Positions 36,478 to 61,140 of a stretch of DNA of 64,000 nt are shown one piece after another; the stretch's first letter is position 1; every line of letters starts with the position of its first letter. Under the pieces are notes generated by a model that made no database searches, was not told the DNA's origin, and worked only from the letters and a program-made list of their open reading frames with translations. Source of the DNA: a virus; the IMG/VR virus record IMGVR_UViG_3300044844_000428; one strand, written 5' to 3'. Both the position numbers and the translations under genes were made by a program.

Positions 36478-36951
36478 TCAGCGTGAATAGTAGTTTACAG
36501 TAAAGTCATCAAATTCTCTAATATTGTACTTTTCAAATTCTGACGGAACATAAAAAGTAATATCACCTTTGACTTCTAACTTCATTCTTGATACAATAGC
36601 AATCCTACAATAAGCTATAAGAGCAAGATATATCTCACCTCCACCACAAATCATAAAACTTACTGTTGGATTACATTGAGCATAAGTCAAGAAATTATCA
36701 ATTGTCATGGTAGTAAATCCTGCTAATTTATAATTAGGATCTCTACTTAATACAATACAGTCACGCCCAGGTAATTTGCCAGTAGTTTCAGCAGTAATCC
36801 TACCCATAACTATAGTAGAACCCATTGTCGTATTTTTGAAGTGTTTAAGTTCTTCTCTGCAATGCCAAAGCATACCAGGAGTGTATGAGTCTCCAATAAC
36901 ACCGAATTTTGCTACTGCGGCAATTAAATATAAATTATCAAATGGCTTCAC
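36478..36951 (-). CDS. frd: Dihydrofolate reductase
   Basis: GVIG, W...EELKHFK.TT, MGR.T, LPGR, GGGEIY. Confidence 0.9.
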   Translation of the reverse strand: MKPFDNLYLIAAVAKFGVIGDSYTPGMLWHCREELKHFKNTTMGSTIVMGRITAETTGKLPGRDCIVLSRDPNYKLAGFTTMTIDNFLTYAQCNPTVSFMICGGGEIYLALIAYCRIAIVSRMKLEVKGDITFYVPSEFEKYNIREFDDFTVNYYSR

Positions 36952-37937
36952 ACTGCAACCTCAGCTTTAATAGATCCAAGTGACCTGTAATCTTTAATTG
37001 TATAACTATATTCATTAATCTCATCAATAGAATTATAATGGTCATTGAATACCAACGTAGGTAATGCATATTCTGCAAGATTCCGCGATAGTAGTTCTTT
37101 TGTTTGGTTGATATGATTCTTATATAGATGAACATCACCAAATGAGATAATCAAATTCTCTGGTAACATATTTGTCAAATTGCCGAGTATTTCAGTGAAC
37201 AACGCATAACTAGCAATATTGTAGGGAACGCCTAAAAATATATCAGCACTTCTTTGGTATAAATGACAAGATAATCCATACTTAGGAACACCAACATTGT
37301 TCATTAGATTCTCATAGTCCCTATCATAACCAAGTCCAAAATGAGTACCAAAATATTTCTGGACATACAGAACTGCACGCTCGTTGAAAGACAATTGTCT
37401 GACACCAAACTGTACAAAAGCATGACAAGGCGCCAAAGCCATCTTACCTGATTCTACATTTTCCTGAGGCGTCAATTCTTCGCTTGGCAAATCAGCAACA
37501 TTCCATGCTGATATGATATGACGACGACTAAATGGTCTTTCTTTAAGACCACGGATAAGATTTTCAATTTGATCAATACCATCCATAGATTCTGTTGGCA
37601 TATTTGGAATAGGAACCGCACCCCAGTTACGCCACTGTTTACCGTAGATTGGACCTAAGTCACCCGATGGGGTTGACCATTCTTCCCAAATGGTTGGTTT
37701 ATCATTGCCATTCAATTTTCTTAAATCTTCATTATTTGTATACCCATTCAAGAACCACAATAGTTCGTTTGAGATTGTCTTGAATGAAGTAAACTTGCCA
37801 GTGAGCAATGGAAATCCAGATTGAAGATTGAATTTAAGTTGCTCACCGAAAAGTGAAAGAGTGCCAACTCCTGTCCTATCATTAGTTGGATTACCAGTTT
37901 CCATGATTTTCTGAAGAAGATCGTAATATTGTTTCAT
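36948..37937 (-). CDS. td: Thymidylate synthase
   Basis: DRTGVGT, LGPIYG.QWR, ALAPCH, YQRSADIFLGVPYNIASY (Asn = dUMP specificity). Confidence 0.95.
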   Translation of the reverse strand: MKQYYDLLQKIMETGNPTNDRTGVGTLSLFGEQLKFNLQSGFPLLTGKFTSFKTISNELLWFLNGYTNNEDLRKLNGNDKPTIWEEWSTPSGDLGPIYGKQWRNWGAVPIPNMPTESMDGIDQIENLIRGLKERPFSRRHIISAWNVADLPSEELTPQENVESGKMALAPCHAFVQFGVRQLSFNERAVLYVQKYFGTHFGLGYDRDYENLMNNVGVPKYGLSCHLYQRSADIFLGVPYNIASYALFTEILGNLTNMLPENLIISFGDVHLYKNHINQTKELLSRNLAEYALPTLVFNDHYNSIDEINEYSYTIKDYRSLGSIKAEVAV

Positions 37938-39229: not shown

Positions 39230-39676
39230 TCAAACTAAATCTACGAATAACCCAACTTCTTCAAACATAGCTTTTGATTTAAGCCAAGAGTCATACCAAT
39301 TAGGTTTAGACATTAGACATTCTTTACTTACGTAAATCTCACTAATTCCAACTTGAATAATTCCCTTGGCGCATTCAAGACATACTGGAAGTCCATACAC
39401 ATATATTGCTGCTCCATCTAATGATGTTCCTGTATATGAAGCATTATAGATTAGATTCTTTTCAGCATGTACAATATAGTCATACTTAATTTCACGATTT
39501 TCTAATCTCTCAATAGTATCAGATATTCCTCTTGGAAAACCATTGAACCCAGTAGCTAAGATTTGTTTTTTGCTTCCTACTGCAACTGCACCGACTTTAG
39601 TACTGGGGTCTTTGGACCATAAGGACACAGCTTTCGCCATGTCCATGAATCTATTATTCCATTTGTTTTCCATCAT
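39230..39676 (-). CDS. cd: dCMP deaminase
   Basis: SKDPSTKVGA, GFNGFPRG, HAE, PVCLEC. Confidence 0.92.
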   Translation of the reverse strand: MMENKWNNRFMDMAKAVSLWSKDPSTKVGAVAVGSKKQILATGFNGFPRGISDTIERLENREIKYDYIVHAEKNLIYNASYTGTSLDGAAIYVYGLPVCLECAKGIIQVGISEIYVSKECLMSKPNWYDSWLKSKAMFEEVGLFVDLV

Positions 39677-40026: not shown

Positions 40027-40695
40027 TTATTTTATCAAATGGAAATGTTTTTCATAAACATGAAGCGATGTTGCATTCCAGATAATATCACCGATTTCGC
40101 ATTGTACTCCACTCTCATTAAGACATTCATGCAATTCAGTATGGACGTGCTGTTGCCAATATAAGTCATTTTTATATCCAAAAATTGCATCATTTGACCT
40201 CATTTGTACGAATGCGTGAAGTTTATTATTTCTAATAAGATATTGAACTGTATTGGTGCAAATAAAATCAGACATTCCCATGGTTTCAAATTCGGCCCAA
40301 ATAGAAGGCCGGGTATAAATCATTATTGCTCTTCTAGAGAATCTATTTCTTACTAATTCTTGAAGTACGTTCTGGAATTGATAATGGTTTTCTCTTGAAT
40401 AAACACACCAACCATAATTAGAATTTATCATTCCATTTGCATCGGCAACCTGTTTCCACACTGCTGGAGTTTCACCTGGAATGTCATTAACGTTAAGAGA
40501 CATAGATTTGTACCATTCTATTTCTCTTTTAGCATAGTCTTCATTAAGAGTTCCAAAGATAGCAGGTTCACTAGCAATAAATGATGTTCCGACAATTTCA
40601 ACCATTTTGCAACCGGTCTTGTCTATTACAAATTCGTCATTTTCCAATAGTGACTTAAATTCATTTCTAATATCTTTTACGGAGTATTGTTCCAT
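40027..40695 (-). CDS. 42: dCMP hydroxymethylase-like enzyme (T4 gp42 family)
   Basis: NSNYG, DFICT, MRSNDAIFGYKNDLYWQ (T4 gp42: MRSNDVVFGFRNDYAWQ), SLHVYEKHF. Confidence 0.85.
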   Translation of the reverse strand: MEQYSVKDIRNEFKSLLENDEFVIDKTGCKMVEIVGTSFIASEPAIFGTLNEDYAKREIEWYKSMSLNVNDIPGETPAVWKQVADANGMINSNYGWCVYSRENHYQFQNVLQELVRNRFSRRAIMIYTRPSIWAEFETMGMSDFICTNTVQYLIRNNKLHAFVQMRSNDAIFGYKNDLYWQQHVHTELHECLNESGVQCEIGDIIWNATSLHVYEKHFHLIK

Positions 40696-52028: not shown

Positions 52029-54755
52029 TTATCCGTGACAGGCTACACATTCGCCTTTATTAGTTTGAACTCCGCTTTCAGATCTAATATAATAAAGACT
52101 CTTAATATACGGATCCTTGAAAGCCATTTTATGTACTTCACTAATATACTGTTCAGTCTCATCTGAGCTAAAAAATAAATTAATGCTTTGAGCTTGATCT
52201 ATATATCTTTGACGACTTGATGCTAATCTAATAATATGCATTTGGTCAATTTCAAATGCAGTCTTAAATACTAGTTTCTCATGGTCATCTAACCATTCAA
52301 CATGTTGTACCGATCCTTTCTTGTTGATAATATCCTTTACGGTATCATCAGAATAGACACCACGTTCTTTCATTAACTTTAATAGAGTTGGATTAACTCG
52401 GTCAATCTTTCCTGCTGCCGTGTTTTGAACATATGCATTTTTATAAATTGGCTCTATGCCTTGGCTAACAGAACCACAGATTAAAGCGGAACTGAGATTT
52501 GGCGCAACCGCAATTCTATGAGTGTTTCTAACTCCATAACCTTTGCACCATTCAGGTTCGCCAAATTGTGATGCCATCCATTGAGAAGCTTTTAATGATT
52601 CTTCATTGATGTGTTTAAAGATTTCAGTATTCTTTAATTGGGCTTCAAACGATTCAAAAGCAATATTATTATCTTGAAGATACGTATGGAATCCTAATAA
52701 ACCTAATCCAAGTGCTCTGCTTTTCTCTGCAAATCTAACAACCTTTTCCATTCCACGAGTGTTTTTTCCAATCTCTATTAGATCTTGGTTAACACAGTCA
52801 AGGAAAACTGTGGCATCAAATACTGCTGTTGTATTTTTCCATTCATCAAAAAGTGATGCATTCATTGATGATAATACACAACTAAAGGTATGTTCGTCAT
52901 CTGAGAATAATTGTATTTCCGAACAATTGTGAACCAAAATTCCGGAACACTCAAGATAATTTTGATCCTGAGTTGATGTAATAATATTAAAGTTATGATT
53001 ATCTTCTACAGTTAAATCATATACAGATTCAATACCAACATATTCTATTTTTGTTACACATAATGATGTAACAGAAAATTGCAATTTATGGTTTGGTTCT
53101 ACATAATCCTTCTTAATGTATTCTTCCGGTTCAATATTATTTGTTACCATCCATCTTAAGTTTACAATAGAACCACCGAATCTATTTTTGGAAAAACTAC
53201 TAGGCATTCTTGAATCCAATTTCCCAAGATTCCCAAAGGTTATAGCGGCACCGATATCATATAAAGATTTTGCATATTCATATATCTCAATATTGGTTAA
53301 TCCCAAATATCTCGAATTACCAGATAACGTCATTGATATACTTTTATTAGCCAAATATGCTTCTTCATCTCTTATTTTAAATGCTGCATTATTTTTACCT
53401 GAAACTTCAATTGAGGTTTTCAGTCGATGTTCAGATGCTTCTAATAATTGCAAATTCTCAATAGAATCATCCGCATTATTTTCTATATGATCGATATGAA
53501 AGCCATCCGGAACATCACCATAATTATAACGCCATATCAAAGAATGTTGTTTAGCATGTCCATTTGACATACTATTGATATGGCGATACTTTCTAGTATT
53601 ACCCAAAGAAGTATAGAACGGTTGAAGTGGTTTTCCTATTGATAATGATGCTTCAATATAAGTACCGTCTTTAAGAGCAATAGCATGATCTGGTGTACAT
53701 TTGAACGAAGATCCATCTGATAGAGTTACTTTTATAAGTTTTTTCTCGCCAGTCTTGAAAGCAATAGCAGGTTTTATTTCATTTACCCATATTTTCTTAT
53801 TGCTATTCCATCTTGAAGAATATACAGGAAATCTACCAACTCCATTTGATTCTATTGCTAATTGTTCTATAGATACGGCATTTCTGCCATCGGCAACAGC
53901 AACAAGAGTGTCACCGGAAAAACACAAGTTGCTTGCTTTTACTGTAAGACCCAAGTCTTTATACATTGCAGGATTTTGTTCGTTAACTTTATCAATGAAT
54001 TCAAAATAACCTTTTCCTGTAATCATTTTTAATTTCAATGCCTTTTGATATCTTTCAATAGCATCTTTATCTCCATCATCTAGTCTTTTAATAAAATCAT
54101 TACTAATATTCCAACCAATATTTGCATCATCTGGTTGTTTATTAATATAATTGACTAATTCATGGAAATCTGGATGATCAATTTCTATATAACCTGCCCA
54201 AGCTCCGCGTCTTTGACTTCCTTGGCTAATGTCTCTTGACATTTGAACAAAGTCTTTGAATACTGGAAGAACTCCAGACGAACTTCCTTTTATTCCAGAT
54301 ATTTTAGATCCTCTTGGTCTGATGTCACCTAAATAACCAGAAGTTCCAAATCCATTTTTTGATAATACCGCAGCTTCCTTTTGTGATTCATAAAATGAAT
54401 AGACAGAATCACTAATGAATCCGCCTGAGCATGATACAGGACATCCAATACCAGTTCCCATATTAGATAACACAGGCGTTGATGCTGCTAACCAACCATT
54501 CCATAATAAGTCAAAGAACTTTAATTCCCATGTTGCTGGATCATTAGTATATGTTGCCGCGTGTTTTGCTATTCTAGAATATACAGACTTCAAATCAGTA
54601 TATTTGTTTGAAAGATAATTTTCTTTTAGCATTTGCCATGCGGCAGTAGTGCACCAATGGGGAAGAGAACCATTCTCTTGTAGTAGTTTACGTTCTTCAC
54701 CTAATTCTTCATAGATTGATAATTCTCTTACCATTGAAATTTTCCTTCTGACCAA
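52029..54755 (-). CDS. nrdA: Ribonucleotide reductase class Ia alpha subunit, intein-interrupted
   Basis: STPVLSN, PVSC, RRGA, SNL/CSE, APN, C-terminal CVAC; no ATP cone. Confidence 0.93.
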   Translation of the reverse strand: MVRRKISMVRELSIYEELGEERKLLQENGSLPHWCTTAAWQMLKENYLSNKYTDLKSVYSRIAKHAATYTNDPATWELKFFDLLWNGWLAASTPVLSNMGTGIGCPVSCSGGFISDSVYSFYESQKEAAVLSKNGFGTSGYLGDIRPRGSKISGIKGSSSGVLPVFKDFVQMSRDISQGSQRRGAWAGYIEIDHPDFHELVNYINKQPDDANIGWNISNDFIKRLDDGDKDAIERYQKALKLKMITGKGYFEFIDKVNEQNPAMYKDLGLTVKASNLCFSGDTLVAVADGRNAVSIEQLAIESNGVGRFPVYSSRWNSNKKIWVNEIKPAIAFKTGEKKLIKVTLSDGSSFKCTPDHAIALKDGTYIEASLSIGKPLQPFYTSLGNTRKYRHINSMSNGHAKQHSLIWRYNYGDVPDGFHIDHIENNADDSIENLQLLEASEHRLKTSIEVSGKNNAAFKIRDEEAYLANKSISMTLSGNSRYLGLTNIEIYEYAKSLYDIGAAITFGNLGKLDSRMPSSFSKNRFGGSIVNLRWMVTNNIEPEEYIKKDYVEPNHKLQFSVTSLCVTKIEYVGIESVYDLTVEDNHNFNIITSTQDQNYLECSGILVHNCSEIQLFSDDEHTFSCVLSSMNASLFDEWKNTTAVFDATVFLDCVNQDLIEIGKNTRGMEKVVRFAEKSRALGLGLLGFHTYLQDNNIAFESFEAQLKNTEIFKHINEESLKASQWMASQFGEPEWCKGYGVRNTHRIAVAPNLSSALICGSVSQGIEPIYKNAYVQNTAAGKIDRVNPTLLKLMKERGVYSDDTVKDIINKKGSVQHVEWLDDHEKLVFKTAFEIDQMHIIRLASSRQRYIDQAQSINLFFSSDETEQYISEVHKMAFKDPYIKSLYYIRSESGVQTNKGECVACHG
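52926..53924 (-). mobile_element. 333-aa intein with HNH endonuclease
   Basis: Starts CFSGDTLV (res 278), block B CTPDH, ends VYDLTVEDNHNF...ILVHN before Cys; HIDH...D..ENLQLL...H. Confidence 0.92.
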
Positions 54756-55720
54756 TTGCGACTATAATCATTACCTTGACTTGAAAAGAAGTCATGTAAA
54801 GTTGAGCTTTCAATATCTTTATAGAACCAAGTTTTAATTGGGTTATAAGATGGTTTAAATATTCCATTATATGAAAGATTTTCTAGACAAATATCTAATC
54901 TAGATTCAACAAAGTTTTTTAGTTGGGTGTTTGTTATTCCTTTAATATGACCCTTCTCAAAAATTTTATCAATAATAATTGATTCGTGCTCTAGAATAAC
55001 TCTTGCAGTTTCTATCAATTCTTCTTTGAGGCTAACTAATTCGATAGAGGTCAATTGTTCATCGGCGAAAGCTTCTGACTTTAATGTTCTGAATAACCAT
55101 GCGCCTGCTTGTGAATGTAAGGTTTCATCAATTGCTGAAAAATTTATTCCAGCATTTATATTGATGAGTTTATTTTTTCCTGCCGAGTTGAAATGTTTAA
55201 GAAATGCAAATGAACTATAAAGAATAGCTCCTTCAATCATTGAAAACACTCCAACCGATTTTAGGACATTGTACACAGAATCTTTTTTAGTAGTTCTTTT
55301 TGCAATCCAATTCATTCTATTGGCTAGTACTTCATCTTCTTTGTAAGAGTTATAAAAGTCAACATTATCTAATCCAAGAACCTCGTTGATTTTATTATAG
55401 AATGGAGCATGTACTCCTAATTCCATAAACGAGAAGGTAGAGGCCATTCTTTGAATATCTGGTCTAGGAAAGACTTTACTGACATAATTTTGCCAGTAAT
55501 CGTTACCAACATTTAATTCATATAGAGTGAATAATTTTAGTGTTGATATTACGCCATGATACTCTGCTTCTGTGCAATTCGTCTTCAGATCATGAAGATC
55601 CTTTTCTACTTCAATTTCATCTGGAAACCAAATTATTGATGCCTGTTGTTCTGAAAATTCTATAGCAGTTGGATAATCAGTAATATATTCACTCTTTGGG
55701 CTTAAGATTCTAATAGCCAT
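54728..55720 (-). CDS. nrdB: Ribonucleotide reductase beta subunit
   Basis: W..DEI, ELGVH..FY, EG..LYSSF, DETLH, HDFF. Confidence 0.93.
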   Translation of the reverse strand: MAIRILSPKSEYITDYPTAIEFSEQQASIIWFPDEIEVEKDLHDLKTNCTEAEYHGVISTLKLFTLYELNVGNDYWQNYVSKVFPRPDIQRMASTFSFMELGVHAPFYNKINEVLGLDNVDFYNSYKEDEVLANRMNWIAKRTTKKDSVYNVLKSVGVFSMIEGAILYSSFAFLKHFNSAGKNKLININAGINFSAIDETLHSQAGAWLFRTLKSEAFADEQLTSIELVSLKEELIETARVILEHESIIIDKIFEKGHIKGITNTQLKNFVESRLDICLENLSYNGIFKPSYNPIKTWFYKDIESSTLHDFFSSQGNDYSRNWSEGKFQW

Positions 55721-55821: not shown

Positions 55822-56136
55822 TCATTTTACTCCGAACATTGATAAATCTGGTGAGATTGAGGATCCTTCTTTATAATTTTCCATTTCATATTTTGTATGC
55901 AAATTAGAATCCAAATCTTTAATGAATTCAGAAATAGATTTAGAAATTCCGCAGTTAAAACACTTATAAAGAAATTTGTGGTGTTTCATGTATATATTTC
56001 CGCGAGTCTTCTTTGGATTCTTTACAGAATCACCACAATAATTGCAAGAGAATCTCCAAGCAGAATCATTAACTTGTTTAAAATTTCTAAGTCTCGATGA
56101 CCCCAATAGGATATATTTTTTATCGGTTTTTATCAT
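55822..56136 (-). CDS. Stand-alone primase zinc-binding domain (gp61 N-terminus only)
   Basis: CNYCGDS.KN.KK.RG, YKCFNCG; stops at 104 aa with no TOPRIM domain. Confidence 0.75.
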   Translation of the reverse strand: MIKTDKKYILLGSSRLRNFKQVNDSAWRFSCNYCGDSVKNPKKTRGNIYMKHHKFLYKCFNCGISKSISEFIKDLDSNLHTKYEMENYKEGSSISPDLSMFGVK

Positions 56137-56885
56137 AATGAATTTTCCAATTTTGTCAATTCTTCAATACTATTAAACGACTTTGTTGGGTACTCAGTAA
56201 TATAACAATTTGCTGGGTAATTAATATTTCTTAAATAATGAAGAATATGTAAGAAATTTAATTCTTTTGATTGAGTAATGTATTGTCCATTTTTCCATAA
56301 CACTTCATGCATTTTTTGAAGACTATCATATATTACAGCGTTATTGATATAGAATATAGACTGATCGTGGAATCCTTCCATATGAGTTTCTCCAAGTTTA
56401 GAGAAGTCTGCTGATAATGCGTTCATATTAGAATCAGTCAATATAGTAACGTAAGGATTCTTTTCAGTGCATACCGGAATTACTGCGCTTGAAAAGTTAT
56501 TACCAGTAGAACTTCCAACATCTTTCAATTCTTTGAATATCATTGGGCTATCAATATAAACATCGCCCCATACCAATATAGAATTGTTATATTGATGGAC
56601 ATTCTTATACATGGAAAGAATTGCATGTCCATCTCCTAGTCCCGAATTTATAGGAATTAGATTTATTTTAATATCAAATTCATTATTATCCAAAAATTCT
56701 TTAAAACTTTTTACTGCAGAATCTTTAATTACTAAATCTATAGAGTCAAATACTTCGGACTCTATAGCATTAGTAATAATTCTTTTTAAATTAGGAACTC
56801 CATTTACTGGATATAATACTTTTGGAACATTAATGTTTCCCATTCTTTTGCCGTTTCCAGCAGCTATAATAATTAAATTAATCAT
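56133..56885 (-). CDS. Nucleotidyltransferase (sugar-phosphate NTP transferase family)
   Basis: IIIAAGNGKRMG...PKVL.PVNG.P, WGD. Confidence 0.85.
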   Translation of the reverse strand: MINLIIIAAGNGKRMGNINVPKVLYPVNGVPNLKRIITNAIESEVFDSIDLVIKDSAVKSFKEFLDNNEFDIKINLIPINSGLGDGHAILSMYKNVHQYNNSILVWGDVYIDSPMIFKELKDVGSSTGNNFSSAVIPVCTEKNPYVTILTDSNMNALSADFSKLGETHMEGFHDQSIFYINNAVIYDSLQKMHEVLWKNGQYITQSKELNFLHILHYLRNINYPANCYITEYPTKSFNSIEELTKLENSL

Positions 56886-58590
56886 CTTTTCCCAATAGAA
56901 TTGCTAAGTACATGTTAGTATCTTTGACATCTTTAACTGGTATAAAATTGCAATGTCCACATTGTGATATTTGGTGGTCATTGCCAGATTCACCTTCATC
57001 ACCAATATAAGTAAAATCATTAACGAATAGAGTTTCTGTTGCTAAAATTTTATCCAAGTTTGGTTTTGTAATGTCAATCGTTGTTCTTCCAGACATTCTA
57101 ATTAATAGATCGTATTTGCTTAGTTTAGATTCTAATAATAATTTAATGCTATGTCTGTATTCAGGAGATATTGGTTTGATAGAAATCATTACCTTTCCAC
57201 GTATTTGGATTTTAGTAATATCAATTCCACAGTCTACAATATCTGCCGTAATATATTCTATATCATTTTTAGAGAAAAGTAAATCATTATCTAGGCATTT
57301 TTCGAATTGCGGAATTCCTTCTTTATTAAATTTGTATAGATTAACACCACCATCTGCTAATGCTTTAATATTAGAAAAATTTCCATGCAAAGCATTGATA
57401 GTATTTCCAGTAGATATCCAAACATTATTAGTCTTATTATAAAGTTCTTGAACTCTTTTGACATTGGATTTAGATACTTTAGAGTGCTGCGAGCCTCTAG
57501 CAACAATAGTATCATCATAATCGAAAACGTATTGGTCACTAATCTTTGGGTAATTATAATAGTGGTCAAAAATAGTTTTTACCAATGCCTTTCCGTCGTG
57601 TTTACCCTGATTAAGTAAGAAAGCTGAGATTTTTTGATACGAATCCGGGATTAATAAAGGGTCACCATCTAAAGCAGAAATGATAGTAGTATCTTTTGGT
57701 AAATAATCCATAAGAATATTAATCAATTCGTCACCAGATACACCTTTCATATCAGCATCTTGACTAGCATTAAGAATTAAATATTTCTTTGCTTTCGATT
57801 CTGATATAGTTTCAGAGAATCCAATAGATTTATATGTTGGAATAAGAGATGACCACTGCGTCCCAGATGAAAAAATTATAATGTCTGCTGATAATATTAC
57901 AGATTTCGAAAGTTCTGATAATTCTGGAATTACTGGCTTATTATGGTTATCAACAAAGAAACAATCTACGATTTTATCATCGGGATTATTCCATGATACT
58001 ATATCAGCTTCGTCATGTATAATATAACCAGATTGTGTTTTAGCCATAAGATACATCGGAGAATCAGTATTAGAAATTACACTATTCTCTGGAATGTCTA
58101 ATATTCCTTCAAATACTTTTCCTGCAGAATCCAATGAATAGTTATGTTTCTTTGCTATTCCAGAATAAATGATATTAGAAATTGAAAAGTCAATATAATC
58201 TATCTGTGGCGATAACTGGCTATCAAAGAATTGATTCACTCCAGAAGCTAATACACCTCTATAAAACATATCAATGTCTAGTTTATGGATTCTGTCTAAA
58301 AGCACCGATTGGACTTCATCGGCAGAAATAGTTATTCTGTCATTTAGGAATTCATACAATTTTTCTGATATACTATTTTCCAGTTTTGCTCTTAGCATTT
58401 GATTCTTTCTTAAATCGGACGGACCCATAATTTTTCCATCCATAACTTTTCTGCATTCTCCAGTAGAAAGACCGTTATCCGCTAAGTTTGTAATGACTGT
58501 ATAGTCTAATACATCTTTACCAAAAGTTTCATATAGACCTTTCTGCAATTGAACTGAACCAGTTCCACCTGAAAATATTACGATTTTCAT
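56878..58590 (-). CDS. CofD/YvcK-like transferase fused to HAD (PMM-like) domain
   Basis: N-term SGGTGS, DNGLSTG..R, PSDLRKN, ADIII...G...SSLIP; C-term FDYDDT, STG, K, GDEGESGNDH. Confidence 0.75.
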   Translation of the reverse strand: MKIVIFSGGTGSVQLQKGLYETFGKDVLDYTVITNLADNGLSTGECRKVMDGKIMGPSDLRKNQMLRAKLENSISEKLYEFLNDRITISADEVQSVLLDRIHKLDIDMFYRGVLASGVNQFFDSQLSPQIDYIDFSISNIIYSGIAKKHNYSLDSAGKVFEGILDIPENSVISNTDSPMYLMAKTQSGYIIHDEADIVSWNNPDDKIVDCFFVDNHNKPVIPELSELSKSVILSADIIIFSSGTQWSSLIPTYKSIGFSETISESKAKKYLILNASQDADMKGVSGDELINILMDYLPKDTTIISALDGDPLLIPDSYQKISAFLLNQGKHDGKALVKTIFDHYYNYPKISDQYVFDYDDTIVARGSQHSKVSKSNVKRVQELYNKTNNVWISTGNTINALHGNFSNIKALADGGVNLYKFNKEGIPQFEKCLDNDLLFSKNDIEYITADIVDCGIDITKIQIRGKVMISIKPISPEYRHSIKLLLESKLSKYDLLIRMSGRTTIDITKPNLDKILATETLFVNDFTYIGDEGESGNDHQISQCGHCNFIPVKDVKDTNMYLAILLGKDD

Positions 58591-59399
58591 AATATACCCT
58601 TATTTTTTTCTGCAATAAAAATATAACATTCTGCAATCTTTGGATTTAGAAATGCTATCGTACTTGCCGCGAATCCTTGCGAAATACCTTTTAATTGGTT
58701 ATATAGAGCCATATTGTTAGAACTCAAATGCTTTTTAAAATATCTGGCTTTACCTAACCACCCATTGACTCTTCTGATACTTAATCCATTAGTGGTTATC
58801 ATATCATGCATTTCGTCCAAAGTAAACTCTTGAATGTGATTCTCTGGCCATACAAATTCTTGACCTTCGTCCTTTTTTGGATTAGGAGATGATATGACAA
58901 TAAATCCTCTATCTGATACCAATTCAGATGCTTCTTTTATAAGTTTCAATGCAGTTTCTTTTGGAATATGTTCTAGAATTTCCTGCAACAGAATTACGTC
59001 ATATTTGTCATGATGCTTAATGTCATGAAATGAAGTAGTATTTAGATCACATTGAATGACTTTGTATTTGTTGACAGATTCTCTTCCAGTTGGGGTATTT
59101 GCTTCATCTACAACAGATTGTTCATATTCTAAACCTAAGTAATCCACTCTGGGACGCAATAAACTTTCAAAACTTTTAGACCAAAATTGATAGAATGTTT
59201 TATTGCCACACCCAACATCTAATATAGTAACATAATCTTCAGTATTTTTTCTTTTGATTTTGGTAATTTCTGTGCATGTTGAAGTATATCTGCTAATGAA
59301 TGCAATATGCCATGCACTGGAAAATTTTATTTTACCAAGGAATCCATTTTTAAAAAATACTGCTGAACTGTCATCAAATACGTCTTTTTCTTGTTCCAT
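58587..59399 (-). CDS. Class I SAM-dependent methyltransferase (small-molecule type)
   Basis: ILDVGCG, EILEHI, ISSPN, H..EF; no DPPY/NPPY/PC DNA-MTase motif. Confidence 0.85.
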   Translation of the reverse strand: MEQEKDVFDDSSAVFFKNGFLGKIKFSSAWHIAFISRYTSTCTEITKIKRKNTEDYVTILDVGCGNKTFYQFWSKSFESLLRPRVDYLGLEYEQSVVDEANTPTGRESVNKYKVIQCDLNTTSFHDIKHHDKYDVILLQEILEHIPKETALKLIKEASELVSDRGFIVISSPNPKKDEGQEFVWPENHIQEFTLDEMHDMITTNGLSIRRVNGWLGKARYFKKHLSSNNMALYNQLKGISQGFAASTIAFLNPKIAECYIFIAEKNKGIL

Positions 59400-59400
59400 A

Positions 59401-60507
59401 TTATACCTCCAAAAGTTTTACAAAGTTTAAACAATATTCTGATTTATTAAAATCTACACATGAATGTTGAAGTTCTATTAGTGATTCGTAATCAGAATCT
59501 GACAATGATTTGAATCTATCTGTGAATTGATTTCTGTCATTGATATATAGCAAATTGGAAAGTTCAGTATTGTTTCCAAAAATTCTTTTATTCTTATCAA
59601 ATTCGTTATCAATGAATAACAAAGTTCCCGCCATAATAGATTCATATACTCTTTGAGAGATCATTTCAAAATCTGGGTATTGATTATCACCAATAGCAAT
59701 ATGCGTTTTAGAAGAAGACATTTTCTGAATCATATTATTATAATCAACTGGAGGAAGAAACTTTGGCGGACGTAATCCAGTTACTCTTTTCTCATTAAAG
59801 TCCGTAATTTTAATTTTACCGAATACTTCTACCGAAATATCTTCTGGGAGTCCAAAATAGAATTCTATTAATTTCTTTTCTCTTCTACCAGATCTAAAGG
59901 TTCCTCCATAAGACAAATCAACAGTCTTTCCTAGAATAGAAGTTTCTCTTGGTTTCATCATTGGGAATTTTTGGAAATCATATTGCACAATAGATTCTAC
60001 AGGATATCCATTTTTCTCAAATAGTGCTTTATTTTTTTCTAAATTGTATGATTGCGAAATCACATTAATAGGCTTTGTAATATTAATATCTTCCTTATTC
60101 CAATTTGAAGCCCAGAGTTTCTTCTCAATAGAAGGCCAGATTTGTTTTAGAGATAAATTCGGGTCACAGTACAAGTAAATGATTTTTCCATTAAAGTTGT
60201 TTATTGCTTTATAATTAAGAATCTGTGGTCTGTCTTCTTGGCCACCAAAGAAATTAACAGCACCATTAATGACTACTAATGCATCGTATACATTACTGGT
60301 AATATTCTCATAATGGTCTTCAATATTAAACACGTTGACTGATCTGTTTTGTTGATCTGAAGACAATACCTTAGTATAACAGTCAACTTCACATCCACCT
60401 TCAACCATCATTTCTATTAAAGAAGCAGCTTCACCTGATCCTCCGCTTGATCCGACCTTTTGGCCAAAAACAATTCTTGCACCTAATTTCAATACTGCTA
60501 ATTTCAT
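59401..60507 (-). CDS. bgt: DNA beta-glucosyltransferase homolog
   Basis: NFFGG, YLYCD, YGGTFRSGRREKKL.EF, IGD, RVYES, ID.EFD...RI closely follow T4 BGT. Confidence 0.88.
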   Translation of the reverse strand: MKLAVLKLGARIVFGQKVGSSGGSGEAASLIEMMVEGGCEVDCYTKVLSSDQQNRSVNVFNIEDHYENITSNVYDALVVINGAVNFFGGQEDRPQILNYKAINNFNGKIIYLYCDPNLSLKQIWPSIEKKLWASNWNKEDINITKPINVISQSYNLEKNKALFEKNGYPVESIVQYDFQKFPMMKPRETSILGKTVDLSYGGTFRSGRREKKLIEFYFGLPEDISVEVFGKIKITDFNEKRVTGLRPPKFLPPVDYNNMIQKMSSSKTHIAIGDNQYPDFEMISQRVYESIMAGTLLFIDNEFDKNKRIFGNNTELSNLLYINDRNQFTDRFKSLSDSDYESLIELQHSCVDFNKSEYCLNFVKLLEV

Positions 60508-60538
60508 AGATCACCCTTTGTAGTAGAATAAAGATTAT

Positions 60539-60568
60539 ATTATATCATATTTTTGATATTTGTACACA
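60539..60568 (-). promoter_or_regulatory. Early promoter heading the modification operon
   Basis: GTGTAC-N17-TATAAT. Confidence 0.75.
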
Positions 60569-60702: not shown

Positions 60703-61140
60703 TTATTTGAATAGTTTCAATATATCTGAATGGTCAATAAGGTATCCAATTACTAAACTTCCACCAATAACTATCCATTTCCATGTTTCTAATGCAGAAA
60801 GTCTATCAGAAATATCTTCTCTATATTCATCTGATTTTTCTTCATGTTCTTTAAGTTTAGATTCAATACGAGATTCCATATCATCTAACTTGTCAACAAT
60901 CTCTTTAGTAGTTTCTTCCATTTTCTTGTATAGATCCTTGACATCAGTTGTAGTTTCTTTATTATTATTCTCAAGATTGTTTAGTCTGTTGTCGTGTACT
61001 ATTAATAATCTTGATACTTCTGACGATGCTTTAGCAATTTCTGCAACTGTATTGTCTATCTTATAAACGACATTTTGGAGAACTGCCACCTCAGTTACCA
61101 GTCTATTGAGGTCATTACAGGGTGAATTGTGGTCACTCAT
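60703..61140 (-). CDS. Coiled-coil membrane protein (holin/XhlA-like)
   Basis: Heptad-rich body, LE.WKW plus C-terminal TM helix; follows spanins. Confidence 0.5.
   Translation of the reverse strand: MSDHNSPCNDLNRLVTEVAVLQNVVYKIDNTVAEIAKASSEVSRLLIVHDNRLNNLENNNKETTTDVKDLYKKMEETTKEIVDKLDDMESRIESKLKEHEEKSDEYREDISDRLSALETWKWIVIGGSLVIGYLIDHSDILKLFK

Follow-up and report, generated by a model that had tools for sequence, protein, structure and literature searches.

Glucosylation of 5-hydroxymethylcytosine (5hmC) in phage T4 relies on the dCMP hydroxymethylase gp42 and on β-glucosyltransferase (BGT), and the phage depends on its host for UDP-glucose. Glycosylation of 5hmC protects phage DNA against restriction enzymes and against some CRISPR nucleases, and the glycosylated base is itself the target of type IV systems. 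Other phages carry private routes to the sugar donor: RB69, DLP3 and HY126 contain clusters for arabinosyl-5-hydroxycytosine, and RL38J1 contains a galactofuranose cluster (PMC13326640). Here we describe a four-gene cassette in the IMG/VR virus record IMGVR_UViG_3300044844_000428, analysed as one whole stretch of 64,000 nucleotides (the window). With a probability of roughly 0.6, we read the cassette as a 5hmC-DNA hypermodification unit with its own donor supply. An earlier note on this DNA had started from the premise that glycosylation by BGT needs no private donor. The premise is true for T4, but the concept of a private donor is not new, because such routes have been described for RB69, DLP3 and RL38J1 (PMC13326640).

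With a G+C content of about 33%, the window represents a T4-like myovirus genome. Its products include gp32, a T4 baseplate protein, a gp19-like tail tube protein, RNase H, PhoH, and NrdA and NrdB with an intein. The gp32 protein is about 50% identical to gp32 of marine cyanomyophages and of Pelagibacter phage HTVC008M. The cassette is composed of four minus-strand open reading frames (ORFs) at 56133–60507, sequentially encoding a DNA glycosyltransferase (GT), a methyltransferase (MT), a fusion of a YvcK-like domain with a phosphomannomutase (PMM)-family domain, and a nucleotidyltransferase (NTase) (Table 1). The GT and MT genes are separated by a 1-nt gap, the MT and fusion genes overlap by 4 nt, and the fusion and NTase genes overlap by 8 nt. 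The earlier note had reported four abutting or overlapping genes, and ORF analysis reproduced their coordinates, strand and junctions. Its domain calls (GT, MT, CofD/YvcK-HAD and NTase) likewise hold in Pfam, PHROG and profile searches.

Table 1. Features of the cassette and of related or adjoining DNA, in window coordinates.
Feature	Position	Strand	Evidence
DNA glycosyltransferase (GT), T4 β-glucosyltransferase (GT63/PF09198) homologue, 368 aa	59401–60507	−	PF09198 2.3e-29; phrog_7922 5.8e-61
Class I S-adenosylmethionine-dependent methyltransferase (MT), small-molecule type, 270 aa	58587–59399	−	Methyltransf_31/23/12/25/11 matches
Fusion, two-domain protein, 570 aa	56878–58590	−	
YvcK/GlmR (UPF0052)-like domain, CofD superfamily, fusion residues 1–345	57556–58590	−	PF01933 CofD 1.7e-21
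HAD-IIB domain, PMM/alpha-phosphoglucomutase (alpha-PGM) family, fusion residues 346–570	56881–57555	−	Profile vs PDB
GlmU-like sugar-1-phosphate (or polyol-phosphate) nucleotidyltransferase (NTase), 250 aa	56133–56885	−	NTP_transf_3 4e-7; IspD 3e-6
gp42-type dCMP hydroxymethylase, putative 5hmC acceptor supply	40027–40695	−	54% identity to T4 gp42
Sigma-70-like promoter candidate, extended −10 (TGTACA, 16 nt, TG-TATAAT)	60539–60566	−	Consensus match only
Zinc-ribbon ORF (primase N-terminal type), 104 aa	55822–56136	−	phrog_451 2e-20; phrog_47 DNA primase 2e-15

The GT aligns with T4 BGT over its full length, with 28.5% sequence identity, and its PF09198 score of 102.7 bits is above the curated cut-off of 27. 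An alignment of 14 sequences was built from the window GT, T4 BGT and 12 homologues linked to the same module of GT, fusion and NTase. In this alignment, residues E26, D115, R205/R209 and R286/E289 correspond to Glu22, Asp100, Arg191/195 and Arg269/Glu272 of T4 BGT and are invariant, so the equivalents named in the earlier note are correctly placed. We take the roles of these residues in T4 BGT to be those of catalysis for Glu22 and Asp100 (catalytic base) and of UDP-phosphate or ribose ligands for Arg191, Arg195, Arg269 and Glu272. The module-linked GTs are 33–58% identical to each other and 28–37% identical to the BGTs of phages without the module. Its family, its conserved residues and the gp42-type context suggest that the window GT would transfer a sugar to 5hmC in DNA.

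The gp42-type gene lies 16 kb from the cassette and is functionally linked to it. Its motif RSNDAIFGYKND keeps Asp at the equivalents of positions 169 and 177 of E. coli ThyA, and the catalytic Cys and the CTNT motif are present. An Asp at the position of ThyA Asn177 is cytosine-specific, and D169N is the signature of 5-hydroxycytosine synthases (PMC13326640). By this rule, the Asp/Asp signature marks the window enzyme as cytosine-specific and not as a 5-hydroxycytosine synthase. Genes for a canonical ThyA (36948–37937) and a dCMP deaminase (39230–39676) are located nearby.

The N-terminal domain of the fusion is most closely related to YvcK/GlmR. Its profile matches UPF0052 structures in the PDB with E values of 5e-23 to 7e-13, and a true CofD (3c3d) only at 0.56. 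A predicted model of the fusion, with a predicted local distance difference test score (pLDDT) of 90.9 and a predicted template-modelling score of 0.86, recovers both domain folds. In Foldseek, the N-terminal domain reaches template-modelling (TM) scores of 0.76–0.78 to YvcK, compared with 0.64–0.69 to CofD/FbiA. The profile and TM values place the domain outside CofD proper. About 50 residues between M1 and D280 are invariant across 24 sequences, including the motifs GGTG, DNG-STG..R, GP-D-RKN and G..W/Y.S.IP, which are common to YvcK. Compared with D40, D41 and N198 of Listeria GlmR, and with the mapping being approximate, D38 is kept, the equivalent of D41 is Asn, and that of N198 appears to be Thr252. 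An Asn at the D41 equivalent is also found in the S. epidermidis YvcK structure 2ppv. In the ESM Atlas, a search by sequence features found only ‘CofD domain’ clusters, which were unnamed and mostly viral. GlmR/YvcK forms UDP-GlcNAc from GlcNAc-1-P and UTP (PMC10128056), and a further study describes GlmR as binding UDP-GlcNAc (PMC7525490).

The C-terminal HAD domain shows only a weak Pfam match to Hydrolase_3, which profile comparison resolved to the PMM family at 1e-20. At this value the profile matches Plasmodium PMM (7myv) over its full length, with 219 of 229 positions aligned. The best 17 PDB matches are all PMM or alpha-PGM, and plain phosphatases appear only at E>3e-3. That PMMs rank so far above phosphatases supports a predicted mutase rather than a phosphatase. 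HAD motif I DxDxT (D357, D359 and T361) and motif IV GDE...GND (D531, N537 and D538) are invariant. In addition, the cap loop NRGN..ISIKP aligns with the PMM loop RNG..N.SPIGR. A complex prediction for the fusion and the NTase scored 0.00 against a mark of 0.32, which we treat as evidence neither way.

The NTase profile matches the GlmU uridyltransferase domain best (4e-17), followed by IspD/TarI and glucose-1-phosphate thymidylyltransferase. The signatures AAG..R...PK and WGD are intact, with A9, G10, R14, K22 and W106-G107-D108 invariant in 22 sequences, so that the N-terminal G-x-G-x-R...K signature and the metal-binding Asp of sugar-1-phosphate NTases are both present. There is no match to PF01983 (CofC) at E<=0.01, and no CofC structure among the best 60 of the 96 profile matches (E<=1). 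A guanylate-kinase-family gene directly follows the NTase gene in locus L019 (L019:12630-13277). About ten related loci have an ORF of about 202–228 aa in this place, and many post-NTase ORFs are guanylate-kinase-like. In the uncultured phage LR756500, a guanylate-kinase-family gene lies upstream of the fusion instead (L002:6040-6729). Such a gene could encode a kinase for hydroxymethyl-dCMP or a supplier of GDP/GTP.

The module of GT, fusion and NTase recurs in other phages, together with gp42-type genes. Among 50,697 phage records, fusion and NTase homologues were found only in the Ralstonia jumbo phage RsoM2USA and in LR756500, which has a length of 462 kb. The same two phages provide the best GT matches, with 48% and 41% identity. 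A BGT homologue occurs in 121 phage records, and the fusion accompanies it only in the two whose GTs are closest to the window GT. In RsoM2USA, gp2 (GT), gp1 (fusion) and gp486 (NTase) adjoin one another across the ends of the record, and a divergent thymidylate synthase (TS) homologue lies 4.6 kb from the cassette. Among the carriers of all three genes that were found, RsoM2USA alone is a cultured phage. In LR756500, the GT, fusion, NTase and TS homologue are all located within about 9 kb. A megablast search of the whole cassette against the 50,697 phage records gave no match.

In metagenomes, the fusion has at least 120 full-length homologues on contigs of up to 368 kb, many of them jumbo-phage-sized. 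An alignment-based scan of IMG/VR yielded 37 phage loci, of which about 24 are distinct. GT, fusion and NTase follow one another in this order in about 33 of the 37, and the NTase adjoins the fusion in all but one (36/37; the exception is L044). A TS homologue is present within 10 kb in 24 of the loci. The TS motifs extracted are of the gp42-type Asp/Asp kind in all but L046, where the pattern matched an unrelated stretch. The pairwise identities of GT, fusion and NTase co-vary with rho values of 0.80–0.89, a level reached by 0 of 1000 permutations, and this co-divergence fits long co-inheritance. Because the same order recurs in dozens of independent phage contigs, the arrangement is not due to chance. 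Co-occurrence with gp42 and BGT in other genomes, proposed in the earlier note as a check, is present in the IMG/VR loci, RsoM2USA and LR756500. We therefore consider the cassette real, and the claim that it is a DNA-glycosylation unit tied to 5hmC gains support from the same co-occurrence.

Bacteria contain the fusion and NTase as a pair in other surroundings. Relatives of the fusion, at 28–37% identity, were found in 36 loci of metagenome-assembled genomes (MAGs), mostly from gut Clostridia. An NTase homologue adjoins the fusion in 36 of the 36, and none of these loci contains a BGT-like or TS-like gene. The contexts are chromosomal or those of polysaccharide loci, with a GT2 glycosyltransferase as a neighbour in 32 and a GT8 enzyme in 6. 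Both are Leloir transferases, which use NDP-sugars. Since the pair accompanies whichever Leloir glycosyltransferase is present, it behaves as a nucleotide-sugar supply unit. Such behaviour also speaks against a direct action of the CofD-like domain on DNA. The presence of the pair in bacterial polysaccharide loci suggests an unrecognised activated-sugar route in gut Clostridia.

In one polysaccharide-type locus of gut Clostridia (L067:3760-13807), the pair is accompanied by an initiating sugar transferase, a GT8 enzyme, a radical-SAM activase and a glycyl-radical enzyme. In another (L070:6597-10428), it directly follows a 459-aa GT2 enzyme and lies beside PGK and TIM. In a distant relative from a Desulfobacteraceae MAG (L084:6305-8560), the CofD-like domain is fused directly to the nucleotidyltransferase in a protein of 751 aa that has no HAD domain, and the neighbouring genes are uninformative.

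The MT matches only generic class I families in Pfam, with no named DNA-methyltransferase family at E<=0.01. Its AlphaFold2 model has a pLDDT of 86.8, and the Foldseek top 50 are generic class I methyltransferases that give no clue to the substrate. An assignment as a DNA base methyltransferase is unsupported by Pfam and Foldseek, the BseCI DNA methylase appearing only weakly, at E 0.01, in the sequence search. The best PDB sequence matches are the methyltransferase domains of bacterial Hen1 (3e-6), over the Rossmann core only. We judged this match too weak for an assignment as Hen1, as it is confined to that core, though an ExxEH stretch aligns.

The MT family is small and consists of 16 proteins, all metagenomic. 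MT is absent from RsoM2USA, LR756500 and most IMG/VR module loci, and is therefore accessory rather than a core step. Homologues occupy the same slot between GT and fusion in L033 and L015, lie directly upstream of the fusion in L088, and are located 2 kb from the GT in L021. The window cassette is the MT-bearing variant in a marine-type T4-like phage. A homologue of 59% identity is found downstream of a CCA-adding-enzyme-like gene on a T4-like contig (L089:114-6042), where a Cas12f1/TnpB-like gene and a NUMOD3 endonuclease gene are also near.

The domain families suggest the following order of steps, with DNA as the putative acceptor. The gp42-type enzyme would lead to 5hmC in DNA. The PMM-family HAD domain would convert hexose-6-phosphate into hexose-1-phosphate, from which the GlmU-like NTase would form an NDP-hexose with NTP. 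Finally, the BGT homologue would attach the sugar to 5hmC in DNA, at its hydroxymethyl group. The YvcK/GlmR-like domain is conserved and probably constitutes a catalytic part of donor synthesis. It may perform a second nucleotidyl- or phosphotransfer step, or bind or sense the NDP-sugar. It may also supply hexose-1,6-bisphosphate for the mutase, a compound that PMM-type mutases need. Glucose, mannose or an amino sugar would each fit domains with GlmU-like, YvcK-like and alpha-PGM/PMM-like affinities. The earlier note had proposed a private NDP-donor pathway, and the PMM-family HAD domain, the sugar-1-phosphate NTase and the occurrence of the pair beside GT2 and GT8 speak for it. The ‘CofD-like phosphotransfer’ that formed part of the proposal becomes only one of several candidate roles, because the domain is YvcK/UPF0052-like (5e-23 vs 0.56).

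Several observations weigh against a hypermodification unit with its own donor supply, including those on the MT slot described in the next paragraph. A PMM and an NTase would be enough for an NDP-hexose, so this scheme does not account for the always-kept YvcK-like domain, which may signal a different chemistry. The homologies do not identify the sugar, which may be glucose, and they give no support to the non-glucose or phospho-substituted sugar proposed in the earlier note. The fusion and NTase occur without a nearby GT in 2 of the 37 phage loci (L032 and L038), and a shared phage phylogeny could produce the same rho values. The paper on RsoM2USA names ORF2 ‘beta glucosyl transferase’ and ORF10 thymidylate synthase and contains no DNA-modification analysis. 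In a simpler scheme, the cassette would secure UDP-glucose where the host pool is small or depleted, and the DNA would carry plain β-glucosyl-5hmC or, with MT, perhaps a methylated glucose. The unchanged catalytic and UDP-contact residues of the GT fit this scheme, as do the alpha-PGM 4bnd among the HAD-type PMM relatives and the phage relatives recognised by gp32, which infect marine bacteria with streamlined genomes. We consider it rather unlikely, however, as the YvcK-like domain would be superfluous and the module-linked GTs form a distinct group by the identities given above. The pair also occurs in the polysaccharide loci of gut Clostridia, which would be expected to make UDP-glucose in the ordinary way. 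A more radical alternative follows the logic of CofC and CofD, which act in the synthesis of F420 and are mirrored by the pairing of NTP transferase and CofD-like domain; CofD transfers a phospho-group from a GDP-activated donor. Here the NTase would activate a phospho-compound (a sugar-1-phosphate, or a small phospho-alcohol or phospho-acid), and the CofD-superfamily domain would place the phospho-group on a hydroxyl of 5hmC or glucosyl-5hmC, releasing NMP. The BGT homologue would use host UDP-glucose, and the product would carry a phosphodiester-linked decoration. This would account for the constant presence of a third activity, the many invariant polar residues of the N-terminal domain suggest catalysis, and a CofD-superfamily fold is paired throughout with a MobA-like NTP transferase, to which it is fused in L084. 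Against it, the domain is far nearer to YvcK/GlmR than to CofD (5e-23 vs 0.56; TM 0.78 vs 0.66), and the NTase profile gives GlmU, IspD and glucose-1-phosphate thymidylyltransferase, with no CofC among the matches listed. The mutase-family HAD domain fits donor synthesis and has no evident role in a phosphodiester scheme, and the constant partners are Leloir glycosyltransferases, which need NDP-sugars. As the profile and fold searches gave YvcK, GlmU and PMM, we downgraded this alternative and hold it to be quite improbable. The same holds for a variant in which the YvcK/CofD-like domain, as a phosphotransferase, would use the NDP-sugar formed by its partners to place a sugar-1-phosphate or another phospho-group on glycosyl-5hmC. 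If true, this would yield a phosphodiester-containing DNA base of a type not yet described, methyl-capped in phages with MT, and the first clear transferase chemistry for the YvcK family. Finally, the BGT-like enzyme might glycosylate a protein, a lipid or a host envelope precursor, as the donor pair serves surface-glycan loci in bacteria. This seems very improbable, since PF09198/GT63 is known only as a 5hmC-DNA transferase family, the catalytic residues are intact, and the cassette is linked in many phages to gp42-type genes, dCMP deaminase and nucleotide kinases.

The likeliest role of MT, at roughly even odds, would be O-methylation of the sugar, either on the donor or on DNA. Methylation had been placed inside the pathway by the earlier note; the cassette does contain an MT domain, but methylation is no core step, since most module lineages are without it. 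This absence would also fit an MT outside the DNA pathway, acting on RNA (Hen1-like 2'-O-ribose or tRNA methylation) or on another small molecule, or simply being a passenger in an insertion-prone slot. We take this possibility seriously while leaning against it. The best PDB matches are to Hen1 (3e-6) and the PHROG label is ‘tRNA methyltransferase’, but the Hen1 match covers a generic Rossmann core and Hen1 is absent from the Foldseek top 50. The L089 homologue beside the CCA-adding enzyme has no GT or fusion gene within the 12 kb of this locus that was covered. The slot between GT and fusion is taken by an HNH homing endonuclease (phrog_559, ~1e-42) in two loci (L020:8931-9734 and L031:885-1664), and by two unrelated ORF families without a Pfam or significant PHROG match in others (L017/L029 and L019/L037). 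Because of these other occupants and the L089 homologue away from any module, the position of MT leaves its participation unproven. On the other side, MT lies inside the module or within 2 kb of it in five of the six gene maps (the window, L033, L015, L088 and L021), L089 being the exception. The window MT is translationally coupled on both sides, and MT diverges between lineages (38–62%) to a degree comparable with the module genes. In addition, the longest contigs of two further MT homologues, P0122 and P0125, equal in length those of the fusion homologues P0061 and P0021, respectively, which may point to linkage.

The cassette is preceded by a 195-bp gap upstream of the GT, which contains the promoter candidate. 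About 30 nt separate this site from the GT start, and the Shine-Dalgarno-like AAGGGTGA follows it. A single early promoter, as previously claimed, matches the site but is plausible only, because promoter-like sites in this AT-rich stretch are no commoner than in shuffled sequence (39 vs 34 +/- 6). A near-consensus sigma-70-like site (TTGACA, 16 nt, TATGAT; 11/12) lies on the minus strand at 56132–56159, at the 3' end of the NTase gene and the start of the 104-aa ORF, and could drive the downstream nrdB.

At the other end, the zinc-ribbon ORF, absent from the list in the earlier note, overlaps the NTase stop by 4 nt and is translationally coupled to it. It is probably no conserved part of the cassette, judged without comparison with the post-NTase ORFs of the other loci, and is also found in the identical contigs L013 and L014. 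The two ORFs that flank the cassette, at 60703–61140 and 55822–56136, match consecutive parts of phrog_451 (positions 23–113 and 132–221, respectively). A single gene, uninterrupted in other phages, may have been split by the cassette, or the cassette may lie between two portions of it. Further downstream, nrdA (52029–54755) contains a polymorphic HNH-type intein at 52926–53934. The virus record G001, 98% identical on both flanks, is without this NrdA intein of about 1 kb. It matches the window at 52029–52925 and 53935–55686, with the two pieces about 10 bases apart, and ends inside nrdB, short of the cassette.

The cassette is common yet unannotated. Literature searches returned nothing on it, nor on CofD, YvcK or ‘gluconeogenesis factor’ in connection with phage DNA modification, and no link between a YvcK/CofD-like domain and DNA modification was found. 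A widespread cassette with its own donor would imply adducts possibly unlike those of T4 and would free the phage from the host sugar-nucleotide pool. In the cassette, a YvcK/GlmR-like domain also stands in a simple context of three enzymes whose output, the DNA adduct, can be read, and this could make the debated role of the family directly testable.

The window system resembles the glucosylation of 5hmC in T4 in its gp42, which is 54% identical and bears the Asp/Asp signature, and in its GT, which belongs to the same family and keeps the same residues. Unlike the T4 enzyme, which is served by host UDP-glucose, the window GT is in synteny with the mutase-YvcK fusion and the NTase, and it falls at 28.5% identity into the separate module-linked group.

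Pairs of mutase and pyrophosphorylase of the manB/manC type occur in bacterial O-antigen and capsule loci. The cassette and its bacterial relatives share with them the placement of mutase and NTase genes beside glycosyltransferases that would use their product. However, the window mutase is of the HAD type, non-homologous to alpha-D-phosphohexomutase, and is accompanied by an extra YvcK-like domain. It resembles instead the eukaryote-type PMM (PF03332) and the Lactococcus alpha-PGM (4bnd), in the full-length profile match, HAD motifs I and IV and the phosphate-binding loop of the cap, but differs from both in being the C-terminal domain of a two-domain protein. With CofC/CofD (FbiD/FbiA) of F420 synthesis, the cassette has in common a MobA-like NTP transferase beside a CofD-superfamily protein and a match to the Pfam CofD model. 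It differs in that CofD structures match only at E 0.56, no CofC is among the NTase matches listed, and the partners are glycosyltransferases.

GlmR/YvcK (UPF0052) of Firmicutes and Actinobacteria is the closest match of the N-terminal domain in both sequence and fold. The motifs GGTG, D(D/N)GGS(T/S)G..R, P.GD.R(N) and G.GS.(Y/W).S..P are shared, and GlmR handles UDP-sugars (PMC10128056, PMC7525490). In contrast to GlmR, the domain is only about 18–21% identical, is fused to a PMM, is paired with an NTase and lies outside a yvcJ-glmR-whiA operon, and the position of GlmR Asn198 is occupied by Thr, the mapping again being approximate.

The clusters of RB69, DLP3, HY126 and RL38J1 (PMC13326640) likewise bring together DNA glycosyltransferases, a nucleotide kinase and a TS homologue, and obtain the NDP-sugar by a private route with HAD and NTase enzymes. 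They employ a D169N 5-hydroxycytosine synthase, GT4-like transferases, an arabinose-5-phosphate isomerase, a kinase::NTase fusion and a GmhB-like HAD phosphatase, whereas the window encodes a gp42-type hydroxymethylase with Asp169 kept, a BGT-family GT, a PMM-family HAD domain and a YvcK-like domain. Although the concept is known, the enzymes are new: apart from the general HAD and NTase folds, every enzyme of the cassette differs from those of the known clusters.

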